Virus record (IMG/VR): IMGVR_UViG_3300042452_000459
Coordinates: 1 to 54,585 of that record
From: a virus
Lineage: Duplodnaviria > Caudoviricetes
Length of the DNA: 54,585 bases
Strand: one strand, 5' to 3'
Shown one piece after another: positions 12,325 through 39,465 of this stretch. The notes beneath the pieces are model-generated. The model was not told the origin of the DNA, did no database searches, and saw only the letters and a program-made list of their open reading frames with translations. Position 1 is the stretch's first letter, and each line of letters begins with the position of its first letter. The position numbers and the translations under genes were made by a program.

Positions 12325-12345
12325 TTGATGTTACCTCCTGTACTA

Positions 12346-12374
12346 ATTATACCAATAAAAAAGGGGGAAGTCAA
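12346..12374 (-). promoter_or_regulatory. Sigma70-type promoter for the thyX operon
   Basis: TTGACT-17nt-TATAAT; the -35 lies inside the upstream terminator hairpin. Confidence 0.75.
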
Positions 12375-12381
12375 TTCCCCC
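12354..12381 (-). terminator. Rho-independent terminator
   Basis: GGGGGAA-TTGAC-TTCCCCC followed by T tract. Confidence 0.8.
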
Positions 12382-12387
12382 GATCAA

Positions 12388-12474
12388 TCATCCAAGAGTT
12401 GCCATATGATATTGGGCTTCTTGGAGTTTCTTTTGTTTTTGAATTTGTCTACGAATAACATTCAACCAGTTCAT
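12388..12474 (-). CDS. 28-aa basic peptide translationally coupled to DUF4278 gene
   Basis: Hand-translated MNWLNVIRRQIQKQKKLQEAQYHMATLG; ATGA overlap; GGAGG SD. Confidence 0.55.
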   Translation of the reverse strand: MNWLNVIRRQIQKQKKLQEAQYHMATLG

Positions 12475-12629
12475 TTTGCTACCTCCGAATTTTTACATGG
12501 GCGATAGGCAACTCCACGATATGTGTTTGTTGCATGTGCTGGAGAATGGGTTTCCGAATACCATTGACGGTATTCTTCTTTTGGAACATCAGTATTATAC
12601 TGACATCCACGATAAGTTGCAGTAGTCAT
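12471..12629 (-). CDS. DUF4278-family small protein (52 aa)
   Basis: Hand-translated MTTATYRGCQYNTDVPKEEYRQWYSETHSPAHATNTYRGVAYRPCKNSEVAK with two TYRGxxY motifs; AGGAG SD; downstream of glutamine aptamers. Confidence 0.8.
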   Translation of the reverse strand: MTTATYRGCQYNTDVPKEEYRQWYSETHSPAHATNTYRGVAYRPCKNSEVAK

Positions 12630-12661
12630 TTTGTTTCTCCTGAATGAATGGATTTTTAGGC

Positions 12662-12871
12662 CCGTTCCTTCAGCCGTTTGCGTCTATGCCGCACTTCTTA
12701 GGGGAAACCCTTACAAGTTCTGCAATAATTTGTTGTTTCACTATAGTAGGATAATAAGAATTGTTCACCCTACTAACTAGTTGTCCAAATTGCAAACAAG
12801 TAATTAGAACTGCTTCCATAGATGAACGCTCCGTTCCGCGACTTACTTGCGTCTCCCGAAAGAGATGAACG
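12662..12871 (-). ncRNA. Tandem glnA-type glutamine riboswitch (two aptamers; the second has a 128-nt P2 loop)
   Basis: Aptamer 1 (12831-12871): CGTTCA-TCTCT-TTCG-GGAGA-CGCAAGTAAGTCGCGGAACGG. Aptamer 2 (12662-12828): CGTTCA-TCTATG...CATAGA-CGCAAACGGCTGAAGGAACGG. Confidence 0.8.
12670..12819 (-). CDS. 49-aa ORF embedded in glutamine aptamer 2
   Basis: Hand-translated MEAVLITCLQFGQLVSRVNNSYYPTIVKQQIIAELVRVSPKKCGIDANG*; GGAG SD 9 nt upstream. Confidence 0.6.
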   Translation of the reverse strand: MEAVLITCLQFGQLVSRVNNSYYPTIVKQQIIAELVRVSPKKCGIDANG

Positions 12872-12878
12872 TAGACAC

Positions 12879-12907
12879 ATTATAGCGTCTATACACTATC
12901 TAGTCAA
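12879..12907 (-). promoter_or_regulatory. Sigma70-type promoter driving the riboswitch/DUF4278 unit
   Basis: TTGACT-17nt-TATAAT; predicted TSS at the 5' end of aptamer 1. Confidence 0.8.
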
Positions 12908-12915
12908 GTAATTTT

Positions 12916-12929
12916 GTATAATTTGTTAC
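12916..12929. promoter_or_regulatory. NtcA-box-like palindrome
   Basis: GTA-TAATTTGT-TAC (GTA-N8-TAC) 8 nt upstream of the -35. Confidence 0.55.
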
Positions 12930-14045
12930 TTATTTTATGCGAGAAACACCACAATTTTCCCTACACATATGTGTAGGATTTTTCCAAGATGAAATTAAAC
13001 TATGCTGAAAAAATGGGGTATTAATAATTTCATCTAAAGAAAAATAATTTAAGTTAATACTCTTTAATCCTCCCTGTTCTTCTATAAGAGGTATGATACT
13101 ATCATAGAAAATTTTCTGTAAATATTTAACTCCAGAACCCATATTTGGATTATCAATACTCTCATCATAAACAGGTTTTGCATCTGGATTTTTATTAATA
13201 TAGTAATCAGGATAAAAATATCTTAATCTAGCTTGATGATAGCAACAAGCATGAACTATTCCCATGCTATCTACTCTAAGATTTCCTACAGAATTTATTT
13301 TGTGTTTAAACTCACAATGAATATCCGAGTTTTCTCCCGTTCTTCCTGGATTGGTGGTGTATTTAGGATCGGAAGCTTCATGTAAAGTTTTTAATTCACC
13401 TTTATGCATGTAACTATAAGATCCACTGCCAGCACCAGACGTATCCCAAAATCCATTTACAGTCTGATGAGAAAATTTTTTAAATCCAAGTTCTTTGGAA
13501 AGTTTTCTACACTGCTCAATTTGATGTTCATTATGTTTAAAAACTAACATTCTCCACTCTGCGTTTCCACCTCCAGAAATAAAAGACTTTGCATTATCTA
13601 TAACTTTATTATAATCAACACCAACTCTATATTCTGCTAGGGTATCTTCTAATCCATCAATAGAAAAAATTACCCTAGAGTTGGGTGTTGAAAAAAATAA
13701 AAGTCTTCCAAGAGACTTCCAAAAATTTTTATCTCTTGTTCCACCATTAGTACTCATCAAAATATCTATATTTTTATTAATAGATCTTGAGTACTTAATT
13801 ATATCTAGTAAGTCTTCACAAAGACTTGGTTCACCAAATGATCCTTGAAAATTAATAAAAGAAATTTTTTTAAGAACTTCTGGAGTAAACCAAGTTTTCC
13901 AAGTTTCCATAGACACAGAAGATCTGTTTACAAATGTCGTGGGAACTAAATCTACGACATTTGTAAACTTAGAAACTTTGTGTCTAGTACAAAGAGGACA
14001 TTTAGAATTACAATGATCTGTTATATCAATGAAAATTCCAATCAC
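12930..14045 (-). CDS. Radical SAM/SPASM-like protein
   Basis: CNSKCPLC, FGEP, STNGG, FSIDGLEDT, FKHNEHQIE, HACC, C-terminal CRENC. Confidence 0.88.
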   Translation of the reverse strand: MIGIFIDITDHCNSKCPLCTRHKVSKFTNVVDLVPTTFVNRSSVSMETWKTWFTPEVLKKISFINFQGSFGEPSLCEDLLDIIKYSRSINKNIDILMSTNGGTRDKNFWKSLGRLLFFSTPNSRVIFSIDGLEDTLAEYRVGVDYNKVIDNAKSFISGGGNAEWRMLVFKHNEHQIEQCRKLSKELGFKKFSHQTVNGFWDTSGAGSGSYSYMHKGELKTLHEASDPKYTTNPGRTGENSDIHCEFKHKINSVGNLRVDSMGIVHACCYHQARLRYFYPDYYINKNPDAKPVYDESIDNPNMGSGVKYLQKIFYDSIIPLIEEQGGLKSINLNYFSLDEIINTPFFQHSLISSWKNPTHMCRENCGVSRIK

Positions 14046-33714: not shown

Positions 33715-33733
33715 TTTCTTAGAAATAATTTTT

Positions 33734-34131
33734 CAGGCTCGCCACCAATTCTTTGACTGGAAATTGGAAACCAGGCGGAGAAAAATTCCCCATCCGCACC
33801 AACGGCATTTTAGAGATGACGTAAACTCATAGGGGTCATAATTGACTCCACCACTTGATTTTTAGAAAATCAAGAAAACAAATCTATCAGTTTCGCAATT
33901 TCGTTTATGGAAAAAAATCCACATAGCACTAAAACGTCGTAAAGTTTAAGTTTAATTGCAAAAGGTATTGATAGAATACCACCAACACACTTGATAAGTA
34001 ATCCATAACGAAAGTCTCCCCATAACATGATTTGATAACCAACTATGAGGAGAATATTGCCTAAGTATCGTAGAATACTAGATTTAGGCATTGGGTTGCT
34101 CCCGACCAGGGTTTTTATAGTCTCTCCATGA
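33734..34131 (-). ncRNA. manA-type structured RNA, interrupted by an ORF
   Basis: 5' CCCTGGTCGGGA element; three GTTT-stem-TGGTG/TGGCG modules; GGTGCGGATGGG...CCGCC; ends GTGGCGAGCCTG just upstream of the PMI gene, near tRNAs. Recognised from memory of the motif. Confidence 0.7.
33870..34091 (-). CDS. Small hydrophobic membrane protein inside the manA RNA
   Basis: 73 aa with 2-3 hydrophobic segments. Confidence 0.65.
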   Translation of the reverse strand: MPKSSILRYLGNILLIVGYQIMLWGDFRYGLLIKCVGGILSIPFAIKLKLYDVLVLCGFFSINEIAKLIDLFS

Positions 34132-34418: not shown

Positions 34419-34492
34419 TCGGGGTGACAGGATTCGAACCTGCGACATCTCGCTCCCAAAGCGAGTGCTCTACCAAACTGAGCTACACCCCG
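34419..34492 (-). tRNA. tRNA-Pro(TGG)
   Basis: Cloverleaf CGGGGTG...CTCGC-TTTGGGA-GCGAG...GTTCGAATC...CACCCCG-A. Confidence 0.95.
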
Positions 34493-34568
34493 TGGTGGAG
34501 AATAGCGGACTCGAACCGCTGACAGCCTGCTTGCAAAGCAGGTGCTCTACCAACTGAGCTAATTCCCC
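34493..34568 (-). tRNA. tRNA-Ala(TGC), CCA encoded
   Basis: GGGGAAT...CCTGC-TTTGCAA-GCAGG...ATTCTCC-A-CCA; G3:U70 pair. Confidence 0.95.
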
Positions 34569-34819
34569 AAGGCGGAAGCGGTTGGATTCGAACCAACGGT
34601 GCTACTAACACGGCAGTTTTCAAGACTGCTGCCATAAACCACTCGGCCACGCTTCCATTCATTATCATCCCAATGTCTTACAACGCCTGCAATAATAAAT
34701 GCATTAGTCATAAAATATGTAGTGAAGATAATAGTGCGGATGATTGCAATATAATCTGCTTCATGATTTTTATCAGAAGATTTCTCACCTAATGCTTTGC
34801 ACCAAAGTCTCCACATCAA
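34559..34819 (-). CDS. Small membrane protein whose frame runs through tRNA-Ser
   Basis: MWRLWCKALGEK...IIAGVVRHW resembles a common cyanophage small protein; stop lies in tRNA-Ala. Confidence 0.55.
   Translation of the reverse strand: MMWRLWCKALGEKSSDKNHEADYIAIIRTIIFTTYFMTNAFIIAGVVRHWDDNEWKRGRVVYGSSLENCRVSSTVGSNPTASALGN
34573..34656 (-). tRNA. tRNA-Ser(TGA)
   Basis: GGAAGCG...GCAGT-CTTGAAA-ACTGC, long variable arm, discriminator G. Confidence 0.93.
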
Positions 34820-35076
34820 CGGATTTCAAATTCAAGTTTTTTAATTTTTCTTTGACGCCTTGCTTCTTGAAAAGCAAGATCATCTTGACTTAGTATACCA
34901 GTTTGCTTTTGCTTTGTCAAGCCTTCTGTGACAACGATTTGAGAAAGATCTACTGCTGAAATCTTGTCACCATAAATCGTTGCCTGATTTGGGCATCCGC
35001 AAACTATTCGCTTTGAGGAGCTCTTCAACTCCTTGCCGCATGACTTGCAGCGTATCGTTAATGTGTTTGAGTTCAT
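34816..35076 (-). CDS. Small Cys-rich (Zn-ribbon-like) protein
   Basis: CKSC...CGCPN; QEARRQRK C-terminus. Confidence 0.7.
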   Translation of the reverse strand: MNSNTLTIRCKSCGKELKSSSKRIVCGCPNQATIYGDKISAVDLSQIVVTEGLTKQKQTGILSQDDLAFQEARRQRKIKKLEFEIR

Positions 35077-35164
35077 TTCTAATATCGTCTAACTCTTCAT
35101 GAATATCTTGATGATGAAACCTCAAAGGTTTTTGAATAATTTTTTTCAGTTTAGATGGTTTCAT
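34967..35164 (-). CDS. Small coiled-coil hypothetical protein
   Basis: QKPLRFHHQDIHEEL motif; starts 1 nt after the upstream stop. Confidence 0.55.
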   Translation of the reverse strand: MKPSKLKKIIQKPLRFHHQDIHEELDDIRNELKHINDTLQVMRQGVEELLKANSLRMPKSGNDLW

Positions 35165-35165
35165 T

Positions 35166-35351
35166 TCAAAGTTGCTTTTGGTTATTTAGGCTATCGAAAA
35201 ATTCTTTGCTTACAATTTTTGGATTATAACCTGGATAGAATTTTTTTGTAATAACCCCAATACCCATTGCAGTAATAGCACTGTCACAAAGTATCCAAAC
35301 AGTTTTTGTATTACAATCCACTACATGTGGAAGAGGAAATTTATCTTTCAT
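35166..35351 (-). CDS. Small hypothetical protein
   Basis: ORF track; FPLPHVVD...CDSAITAMG...FYPGY. Confidence 0.65.
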   Translation of the reverse strand: MKDKFPLPHVVDCNTKTVWILCDSAITAMGIGVITKKFYPGYNPKIVSKEFFDSLNNQKQL

Positions 35352-35366
35352 GTACTTATTATATCA

Positions 35367-35438
35367 TGGGTGATGACAGGATCGAACTGCCGACCGCCTC
35401 GGTGTAAACGAGATGCTCTACCGCTGAGCTAATCACCC
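35367..35438 (-). tRNA. tRNA-Val(TAC)
   Basis: GGGTGAT...CTCG-TTTACAC-CGAG...ATCACCC-A. Confidence 0.94.
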
Positions 35439-35513
35439 TGGAGCGAAATATCGGATTCGAACCGATGACATTCAGCTTGGAAGGCTGACGTTCTACCACT
35501 GAACTAATTTCGC
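35439..35513 (-). tRNA. tRNA-Gly(TCC), CCA encoded
   Basis: GCGAAAT...TCAGC-CTTCCAA-GCTGA...ATTTCGC-T-CCA. Confidence 0.94.
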
Positions 35514-35517
35514 AAGG

Positions 35518-35599
35518 TGTCGGTGAAAGGACTTGAACCTTCACGGGATACCCCACTGGAACCTAAACCCAGCGCGTCTACCAATTCCGCCACACCGAC
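35518..35599 (-). tRNA. tRNA-Leu(TAG)
   Basis: GTCGGTG...CTGGG-TTTAGGT-TCCAG, long variable arm, CACCGAC-A. Confidence 0.93.
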
Positions 35600-38920: not shown

Positions 38921-38994
38921 AGCTACTTGTCGGACTTGAACCGACGACCTACGGTTTACAAAACCGTTGCTCTATCCAGCTGAGCTAAAGTAGC
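38921..38994 (-). tRNA. tRNA-Thr(TGT)
   Basis: GCTACTT...ACGGT-TTTGTAA-ACCGT...AAGTAGC-T. Confidence 0.94.
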
Positions 38995-38996
38995 AA

Positions 38997-39069
38997 CTGG
39001 GGCGGCAGGGATCGAACCTGCGACCTAGATGTTAACAGCATCCCGCTACTACCGCTGAGCTACACCCCA
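38997..39069 (-). tRNA. tRNA-Asn(GTT)
   Basis: TGGGGTG...GGATG-CTGTTAA-CATCT...CGCCCCA-G. Confidence 0.92.
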
Positions 39070-39224
39070 TTAATTAGATATTCTACTGTATTTGCAACAT
39101 CATTCATTGCTGCTCTAAGATCTGGTTGTTGCCCAGATTCTTGTTTTACAACTGGTTTTTGATCATCTGTCAAAGTCCAACGCCACAGTTTTTGTGGTTC
39201 AGAATACCAAAGATTAATTTTCAT
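39060..39224 (-). CDS. 54-aa hypothetical protein
   Basis: Hand-translated MKINLWYSEPQKLWRWTLTDD...DLRAAMNDVANTVEYLINGV*; stop inside tRNA-Asn. Confidence 0.65.
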   Translation of the reverse strand: MKINLWYSEPQKLWRWTLTDDQKPVVKQESGQQPDLRAAMNDVANTVEYLINGV

Positions 39225-39372
39225 GTTTGAAATATTCAAGCTCGACCCAGTTCAAAAGTGTTTGAAATGCTGTAATTGACGCTTGTGTACAGTTATCGTC
39301 TTTTAATTTTTGCACATAGTATTCTAATGCTTCGATAACCATCTGTCGATCTAATTGTGATAGTAATGACAT
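39214..39372 (-). CDS. 52-aa hypothetical protein
   Basis: Hand-translated MSLLSQLDRQMVIEALEYY...LLNWVELEYFKHEN*; AGGGA SD. Confidence 0.65.
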   Translation of the reverse strand: MSLLSQLDRQMVIEALEYYVQKLKDDNCTQASITAFQTLLNWVELEYFKHEN

Positions 39373-39392
39373 AATTTTCCCTAGTAAAGGAA

Positions 39393-39465
39393 CGTCTCAG
39401 GTTGGGGTCGAACCAACGACCGACTGCTTAGAAGGCAGTTGCTCTATCCACTGAGCTACTGAGAC
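39393..39465 (-). tRNA. tRNA-Arg(TCT)
   Basis: GTCTCAG...ACTGC-CTTCTAA-GCAGT...CTGAGAC-G. Confidence 0.94.

Follow-up and report, generated by a model that had tools for sequence, protein, structure and literature searches.

A small gene nested within a candidate glutamine riboswitch leader of cyanophages

Analysis of a 54,585-nucleotide (nt) viral sequence (IMG/VR record IMGVR_UViG_3300042452_000459), from now on referred to in its entirety as the window, points to a leader on the minus strand (12871..12662) in which a small gene is built into an RNA element of the glutamine riboswitch type. Our best explanation, a composite riboswitch leader with a nested gene, is given a probability of about 0.6. 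The leader would be formed by a type-1 (glnA-type) glutamine aptamer consisting of an outer helix P1, a UUCG-capped hairpin P2 and a helix P3 (AGUCG/CGGCU), with P3 enclosing a second, permuted aptamer-like core. The hairpin stem of this inner core, P2' (UCUAUG/CAUAGA), would close around a 49-codon gene whose last codons and UGA would double as the inner junction, the 3' strand of P3 and the start of the GAAG junction. Glutamine binding, the direction of regulation and the coupling of translation to folding are features we infer from sequence.

Aptamers are normally regarded as non-coding, whereas here sensor nucleotides would also provide a conserved gene with its start, its final five codons and its stop. 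A conserved gene within a glutamine aptamer hairpin, common to many cyanophages, appears to be undescribed: a full-text literature search, with Ames & Breaker 2011 and supplementary alignments outside its reach, returned no account of any gene lying within a glutamine aptamer, and the accessible text of Weinberg et al. 2010, Klahn et al. 2018, the S-CREM1 paper, the Melnitz phage paper and a structural-variant paper gives none either. Such leaders could serve as a natural test system for translation versus ligand sensing on one mRNA, with controls lacking the nested open reading frame (ORF) available in nature.

The nested gene and its peptide

The nested ORF occupies 12670..12819 on the minus strand, TGA included, and is supported by the ORF call, its relatives, its coding signal and the predicted fold. 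Its ATG (12819-12817) lies within the 5' strand of P2' (TCTATG, 12817..12822) and its TGA (12672-12670) within GGCTGAAGGAACG, straddling the elements CGGCT and GAAG. The 5' strand forms six Watson-Crick pairs with CATAGA (12683..12688), closing a loop of 128 nt (12689..12816). An earlier interpretation made from the letters of the window (the sequence-only reading) had described this stem, loop and 49-codon ORF as well as a UUCG tetraloop hairpin in the first aptamer unit (12865-12852), and all of them are present exactly as described.

Related loci were collected through two pattern scans of IMG/VR (at least 120 matches each), which were pooled and de-duplicated to 150 unique loci. In 137 of the 150, an ORF starts at the stem ATG and ends with a stop inside the core or next to it; the stop falls on the identical nucleotide in 131 of these and is a TAG inside the P2' 3' strand in the other 6. 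Among the remaining loci, the stop lies elsewhere in 4, the start is a later ATG or TTG in 3 and no ORF is present in 6. The second pattern set no ATG requirement and gave at least 120 loci, 112 of them assessable: an ATG occurs no more than 10 nt from the second CGTTCA in 102, with a stop no more than 25 nt upstream of the closing GGAACG in 99 of those 102. Together with the stem covariation described below, this start and stop rule argues that the layout is more than chance. Nested ORFs range from 49 to 66 codons across loci. In none of the 137 is frame +1 or frame +2 open; the three antisense frames are open in 5, 6 and 1.

Codon statistics were calculated for 81 sequences of a subfamily of 53-56 amino acids (aa), with entropies taken at interior codon positions. 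Entropy is 1.11, 0.61 and 1.48 bits at codon positions 1, 2 and 3, and the median ratio of nonsynonymous to synonymous substitution rates (dN/dS) is 0.34 (1545 usable of 3240 pairs). For pairs with dS below 0.5 (n = 53) the median is 0.38 and 98% of values are below 1. Frame conservation and a dN/dS below 1, proposed as checks by the sequence-only reading, are thus both observed. This pattern of substitution indicates that the nested ORF is a real gene under selection. The last five codons (W-D-A-N-D) are nearly invariant in this subfamily including their third positions (entropy 0-0.38 bits), which suggests an RNA constraint laid over the coding constraint.

Members of the 53-56 aa subfamily match the phage protein family phrog_504 with expect values (E) of 1e-16 to 1e-25, and the close relatives of the window peptide do so at E 0.0029 (locus L200) and E 1.2e-5 (L171). 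The window peptide, which has the same position in the leader, may be a divergent phrog_504 member. It is 96% identical to the L200 peptide, 84% to that of L149 and 37% to that of L171; the phage DSL-LC03 groups with these three and is absent from the identity alignment. Two cysteines, C8 and C43, are invariant in a 131-sequence alignment. In the AlphaFold model (mean predicted local distance difference test score 79.6) the peptide folds into a two-helix hairpin (helices 8-19 and 25-38), C8 marking the start of the first predicted helix and C43 lying just past the second. A profile search assigned 1572 protein clusters to the family, none of them functionally named, and the best 120 of the 1572 all end in WDAND, WDAHD or WGAND. 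The nested peptide gave no match in a Pfam search, its model had no PDB hit at E <= 0.001 in Foldseek (best E 2.3), and a search of the ESM Atlas returned unnamed viral clusters only. Among the best 120 database proteins, 13 (P0030, P0033, P0054, P0061 and others) are 75-81 aa long, and their gene calls begin upstream, reading the first aptamer unit in frame (..DASKSRNGAVHPM..). These longer calls are an annotation artefact arising because the riboswitch is hidden.

Architecture of the leader

The leader begins with the outer P1 5' strand CGTTC plus A (the first CGTTCA, 12866..12871), invariant in relatives and corresponding to P1 of the type-1 family RF01739 in ORF-less relatives. It is followed by the P2 hairpin of the outer aptamer, TCTCT-TTCG-GGAGA (12852..12865), and a junction, CGCAAGTA (12844..12851), which matches the family's CGGAAGUA in Rfam alignments. 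The 5' strand of P3, also termed inter-core helix X (AGTCG, 12839..12843), is complementary to CGGCT at 12676-12672 with one U-G wobble. Between them lies the inner core, starting with GGAACGG, a linker AG and CGTTCA (12823..12837; the second CGTTCA at 12828-12823), and continuing after P2' with the inner junction CGCAAA (12677..12682), which doubles as the codons Asp-Ala-Asn. The final T of the P3 3' strand CGGCT (12672..12676), placed by covariation, is the first base of the TGA. The GAAG junction and the outer P1 3' strand GAACG (12663..12671, with GAAGG at 12671-12667) complete the element, as seen in the sequence and in the Rfam alignment of relatives. The first CGUUC and the last GAACG are 205 nt apart. 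A local stem of the type-2 kind, formed by CGC and GCG on either side of the first GGAACG and aligned by Rfam as the second stem of RF01704, was considered and rejected on finding it broken in two loci (L025 and L069).

At the Rfam gathering threshold, a scan of the window gave no glutamine riboswitch match; this may be due to a short model not spanning the 128-nt loop. Six of the 150 loci are naturally ORF-less, with 24-39 nt and a short P2' hairpin between the second CGTTCA and the 3' core. The six ORF-less loci in the Rfam run comprise five unique sequences and a duplicate (L135, identical to L131), with L138 left out. Five of them pass the RF01739 gathering threshold (46.4, 43.6, 43.6, 42.9 and 40.3 bits; four of the five unique sequences), and the sixth, L154, reaches 30.9 bits with unit 2 alone. 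ORF-bearing loci in the same run match through unit 1 only, at 25.8-34.2 bits, under gathering. Scoring with and without the insert, a comparison suggested by the sequence-only reading, is thereby provided by nature. In the printed alignments of the top three matches (L233, L131, L135), the first CGUUC is joined to the last GAACG, the unit 1 hairpin is P2, and AGU...ACU is P3, into which the whole inner unit is placed as an insertion of 38-41 nt. Further, the match spans of L169 and L155 take in both units. L169, a close relative of the window, is collinear with L200 and L149 from promoter to terminator except for the nested ORF, and it shares promoter, leader, SD (Shine-Dalgarno) region and terminator with the window, the downstream gene being a different one. 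Where the window has the nested gene, L169 has a 22-nt hairpin (window positions 12340-12945 compared). The downstream genes of L200 and L149, like that of L169, also differ from the window's.

Covariation was analysed on a 110-sequence MAFFT alignment with a specified structure, using slid partners and 500 shuffles as controls. The whole structure is 94.5% paired as compared with 31-53% for slid partners, and none of the 500 shuffles matches it in any of the five measures. Changes on both sides of a pair are seen in 4 of 4 pairs of the outer P2, in 7 of 7 pairs of P2' and in two pairs of P3. Pairs 1-4 of P2' are paired in 99-100% of the 150 loci, with U-A, C-G and G-C variants at pair 1 and C-G, U-A, A-U and G-C variants at pair 4. 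These substitutions, including the P2 covariation that the sequence-only reading had suggested looking for, argue that a genuine RNA helix, maintained by covariation, closes around the nested ORF. For P3, compensatory variants are found in 7 loci (AGTCA/TGACT in three, AATCG/CGATT in two, AATCT/AGATT and AGACT/AGTCT); wobble intermediates occur, the general form being AGUCG/CGACU where the window has CGGCU. A C-A mismatch interrupts P3 in one subfamily (15 of 110 rows), where both strands have also grown by 3 nt in a coordinated way.

Of the two family junctions, AAGUA is confined to unit 1 and GAAGG to unit 2, and only a nested arrangement reassembles the RF01739 consensus. The leader is therefore probably nested, with the first CGUUC paired to the last GAACG and P3 enclosing the inner unit. 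The sequence-only reading had described two tandem glnA aptamers: Two cores are indeed present, but no unit reaches the Rfam threshold by itself and the nested fold fits the family. The hairpin GAACG-GAG-CGTTC, seen there as a competitor, can form (5 base pairs with a GAG loop; GGAG and palindrome at 12836-12824), but in the nested fold it would be an integral helix. Likewise, the GGAG proposed as SD of the nested gene is present in the window but not conserved: of the 150 loci, 119 have AG as the linker between the inner GAACGG and CGTTCA, 27 have AT and 4 have another sequence, and ORFs are intact where it is AT. An AG linker occurs in 118 of 144 loci with an ORF and in 1 of 6 without (Fisher p 0.0015, kinship ignored), which is a hint only.

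Several observations weigh against the composite leader. All four P1 strands (the CGUUC/GAACG copies) are invariant, both inner GAACG/CGTTC strands included, so that covariation cannot separate nested from tandem pairing; the inner strands were fixed in the search patterns, which makes natural variants there invisible. Constrained folding, as minima for the two arrangements, gives -60.2 (nested) and -59.8 kcal/mol (tandem), a difference of 0.4 that is too small to be informative. Support for P3 comes from few independent changes and has to accommodate the C-A mismatch subfamily. In a permissive Rfam scan the window matches with unit 1 only, at 27 bits against a gathering threshold of 35 for RF01739 and at 25.5 against 33 for RF01704. 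Pairs 6 and 7 of P2', to which the AUG contributes its U and its G, are standard in just 55 and 50 of 101 lettered rows; pairing of the AUG is thus not universal, and its place in the stem holds for the window. The ORF-less variants indicate that the leader remains functional, or is at any rate retained, in the absence of the nested gene. The window peptide matches phrog_504 weakly (E 0.0068, 17.1 bits), the 52-aa protein encoded downstream reaches 21.6 bits (E 2.8e-4) against PF14105 (DUF4278) with a cut-off of 25.3, and contigs from RNA libraries that cover the leader may contain DNA.

The alternative with the best remaining prospects, although we give it only a modest chance, is that of two side-by-side aptamers, each closing on itself and binding glutamine, with the inter-unit helix as an interlocking pseudoknot and unit 1 being type-2-like. 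The equal folding energies, the subthreshold matches of single units (27 and 25.5 bits for unit 1 of the window) and the match of the ORF-less L154 through unit 2 alone are in keeping with it, and local pairing of unit 1 would presumably form first during transcription. However, no lone unit reaches gathering in any locus tested, only nested pairing restores the consensus and passes the threshold (five of six ORF-less loci), and the covarying inter-unit helix, a plain P3 if the cores are nested, would require a double pseudoknot.

Proposed coupling to the downstream gene

The leader precedes the gene of a 52-aa DUF4278/IF17-like protein with YRG repeats visible in its translation (12471..12629, minus strand). 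It matches phrog_5049 at E 1.6e-9 and, given the PF14105 score below the cut-off, is best described as DUF4278-like with Pfam membership unconfirmed, in line with the DUF4278-type gene expected there by the sequence-only reading. The strand CTGAAG (12668..12673), in RNA CU[G/A]AAG, is made up of the final two P3 bases, the central base of the nested stop codon and the junction, and is complementary to CUU[C/U]AG, which lies directly 5' of and overlaps the downstream SD. In the window, CUGAA pairs with UUCAG (12644-12640) within TTCATTCAG (12637..12648), the anti-SD partner that overlaps the SD AGGAG (12641-12637). By our own reading, a longer pairing of 8 of 9 positions with UUCAUUCAG may also form in the window. 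The motif TT[C/T]AGG is present in 133 of 145 assessable loci and stands 7-10 nt before an ATG in 131 of these.

The middle base of the nested stop covaries with its SD-side partner. Where the stop is UAA the partner is U in 39 loci and C in 0; where it is UGA the partner is C in 63 and U, which is wobble-compatible, in 27 (Fisher p 1.6e-15, kinship ignored). This association argues that the nested stop codon is located in the anti-SD strand of the downstream gene, and it fits the SD-masking model that, according to the available text of Klahn et al. 2018 (PMC6212724), has been postulated for gifB, whose glutamine riboswitch is described there as an ON switch.

We hypothesize that glutamine would stabilise the aptamer such that CUGAAG is held in P3, the junction and P1, freeing the downstream SD. 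On the gifB precedent, the leader would then be an ON switch for the DUF4278-like gene. The GAACG-GAG-CGTTC hairpin would be an integral helix of this nested fold, and the same glutamine-stabilised fold would bury the start region of the nested gene. Ribosomes translating the nested gene would have to open P2' and terminate on the anti-SD strand, and termination on the nested stop may in turn open the downstream SD. With start and stop built into aptamer elements, translation and full folding should exclude each other on any one mRNA. Mutual exclusivity had also been suggested by the sequence-only reading; the placement of start and stop in aptamer elements is observed, and exclusivity itself follows as a structural inference. 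The ribosome-coupled two-step switch also put forward there stays a hypothesis, to which the position of the nested stop in the anti-SD strand lends some new support.

A simpler possibility is that the small gene is passive cargo, lodged in a tolerant P2' loop, co-transcribed and translated without any interplay with the riboswitch. The hairpin loops of the leader do differ widely in length, ORF-less variants are otherwise identical in layout, the slot holds phrog_504, phrog_13397 or peptides assigned to no family depending on the phage, and a second slot, in P2 of unit 1, holds another family in 41 of 150 loci. Nevertheless, we consider this improbable: Start and stop are fitted into the leader to the exact nucleotide in 137 of 150 loci, covariation links the stop's central base to its partner at the downstream SD, the final five codons hardly vary at synonymous sites, and a ribosome on the AUG or the stop should, given its known footprint size, occupy P1/P2' or the anti-SD strand. 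That the second core of ORF-bearing leaders is merely a split, non-functional relic kept by sequence inertia is hardly credible, even though Rfam does not detect this core and its junctions (CGCAAA, CG) match the consensus worse than the outer ones, as compensatory changes have maintained P2' over distances of 130-200 nt in 110-150 diverged loci and the core halves are more conserved than the intervening ORF, synonymous sites included.

A bolder and rather doubtful extension of the composite leader would make it a riboswitch within a riboswitch with genes as its cargo, and would treat the two partitions of the P1 strands, nested and side by side, as alternative states chosen by ribosome loading on the nested start in the second CGUUCA-P2' segment, so that the mRNA integrates glutamine and translation into the output of an IF17-like peptide. 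The nested two-cysteine peptides (phrog_504, phrog_13397, phrog_6471), perhaps a single superfamily, would then be a new class of phage effectors of host nitrogen metabolism that co-evolved with the sensor.

Compared with the type-1 aptamer RF01739 of the Synechocystis gifB/IF17 leader, the window shares the P1 strands (CGUUC and GAACG), a P2 directly after CGUUCA, the CG-AAGUA and GAAGG junctions and a short P3. It likewise stands upstream of a DUF4278/IF17-like gene, with a putative SD-masking alternative pairing. In contrast, its P3 would enclose a second core whose hairpin encloses a gene with start and stop made of aptamer nucleotides, its P1 would span 205 nt, and it is phage-borne, under the Rfam threshold and known from sequence alone. 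With the type-2 family RF01704 (Downstream-peptide), which is linked to short YRG/DUF4278-like ORFs of marine picocyanobacteria, it has in common CGUUCA followed by a hairpin, CGCA and GGAACG in the loop of the second stem, which in that family forms a pseudoknot with the 5' CGUUC; there, however, the known peptide gene lies downstream of the aptamer, here inside it. Tandem glnA RNAs, noted in the accessible part of Weinberg et al. 2010 (PMC2864571), combine two cores for one ligand in one leader, which may sharpen the response, while the cores of the window share a helix and are best read one inside the other. The closest precedent for coding within aptamers is found in D'Halluin et al. (bioRxiv 10.1101/2022.06.01.494293), who, in one sentence of the available text, mention upstream ORFs of Mycobacterium tuberculosis supported by ribosome profiling (Ribo-seq) within glycine, cobalamin and YdaO aptamers and ask how translation and riboswitch function interact. 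Those cases concern other riboswitch classes in another organism, and the available text mentions neither a covarying stem that encloses the ORF nor a conserved protein family, nor any start or stop formed by aptamer helices. A 99-nt glnA match reported in the accessible portion of the S-CREM1 paper fits the nested ORF-less form.

Probable transcription unit, distribution and a second gene slot

The region 12929..12357 on the minus strand is, on balance, likely to be a self-contained cyanophage transcription unit, running from a GTA-N8-TAC box to a terminator. The box (12916..12929), which we take to represent an NtcA-type consensus, lies 5' of the -35 element of a sigma-70-type promoter (12879..12907: TTGACT at 12907-12902, a 17-nt spacer and TATAAT at 12884-12879), the -10 element ending 7 nt before the first CGTTCA of the leader. 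Among 145 related loci, 117 have a -10-like hexamer, which in 105 of them ends 7-9 nt 5' of the first CGTTCA, and 99 have TTGAC; with such spacing the transcript should begin at the aptamer. Of 136 related loci, 87 share the GTA-N8-TAC box, as compared with 2.2% of shuffles, and in 77 of these its centre lies 45-54 nt 5' of the leader; the box suggests a second nitrogen input at the promoter. At the other end of the unit, a 28-aa ORF (12388..12474) overlaps the preceding stop (ATGA) and aligns with phrog_545 over the N-terminal half of that family (E 4.7e-6, profile positions 1-26 of 55). An intrinsic-terminator-like hairpin with a T-run (12357..12381), conserved in L200, L149 and L169, closes the unit. 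Four metatranscriptome runs yielded contigs of 360-402 nt from a strain with 3-4 differences; they cover 12616 to 12860-12882 and run on into a downstream gene that is the strain's own and differs from the window's. In RNA libraries, the leader and the nested ORF thus form one contiguous piece, a weak hint at transcription.

The window is a cyanomyovirus-like genome with a wcaG RNA and nine tRNA genes, and its DNA was found in lake and freshwater metagenomes (at least 0.92 of sampled words in 18 DNA runs). In blastn searches, parts of the region were detected in 351 phage records, nearly all of them Synechococcus or Prochlorococcus phages. The equivalent ORF is annotated as hypothetical in S-P4, S-SSM4 and P-TIM40 and is unannotated in DSL-LC03. 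Standard Rfam scans overlook the ORF-bearing riboswitch and gene callers sometimes read through the aptamer, which amounts to an annotation gap. A scan of 185,579 species genomes returned 25 pattern matches, estimated to be about the number expected by chance: 19 stem from unrelated bacteria without the 3' core, and 6 carry ORF and leader on phage-sized or probably mis-binned contigs. In this set the leader was found on no cyanobacterial chromosome, the pattern being narrow and absence not thereby established; the regular expression for the 3' core missed one locus (L266, whose core begins ACGAA). Cyanomyovirus-like contigs with the leader are present in assemblies of Nonlabens xiamenensis (L265, 188-kb contig; its peptide is nearly identical to that of P-TIM40), a Synechococcus metagenome-assembled genome (MAG; L254, 194-kb contig) and the Euryarchaeota TMED129 MAG (L266, L269). 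Such contigs in cellular records probably reflect contamination or mis-binning.

In 41 of the 150 loci (L009, L011, L013, L016, L024 and others) P2 of unit 1 also encloses an ORF, so that some cyanophage leaders carry two nested genes. These ORFs, 38 of 65-75 codons and 3 truncated, follow the same rule as the P2' genes, starting at CGTTCATC..ATG and stopping in the 3' stem strand or in AAGTAA, and most match phrog_6471 (E down to 2.8e-41). With a promoter 7-9 nt upstream, the 5' untranslated region of a first-slot gene would be only about 10-12 nt. In the window this slot is occupied by the UUCG hairpin only. The P2' slot contains phrog_504, phrog_13397 or unassigned peptides depending on the phage. 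Profile comparisons gave 74.6% probability (E 2.7e-5) for A4-A5, 16.9% for A3-A5 and 83.2% for A3-A4, the last partly inflated by the shared RNA-imposed C-terminus; they are suggestive of one two-cysteine superfamily of slot peptides. One or two uncharacterised small-protein families (1572 clusters for one) would thereby be placed in a nitrogen-sensing cassette carried by abundant marine and freshwater cyanophages, a placement that opens the function of the peptides to testing.

Directly upstream of the unit, a gene at 12930-14045 (minus strand) encodes a 371-aa radical SAM protein (PF04055, 30.2 vs 29.5 bits) whose stop codon abuts the GTA-N8-TAC box. Elsewhere in the window, the wcaG RNA (RF01761) is located at 33731-33830 (minus strand; 95.4 bits vs a gathering threshold of 42), and the nine tRNA genes form two clusters at 34419-35599 and 38921-39465 (minus strand). 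In P-TIM40, a manA RNA (RF01745, 141.7 bits; L004 978-1172) precedes talC, and some 60 nt separate it from the DUF4278 gene that lies upstream of it in the same cassette.

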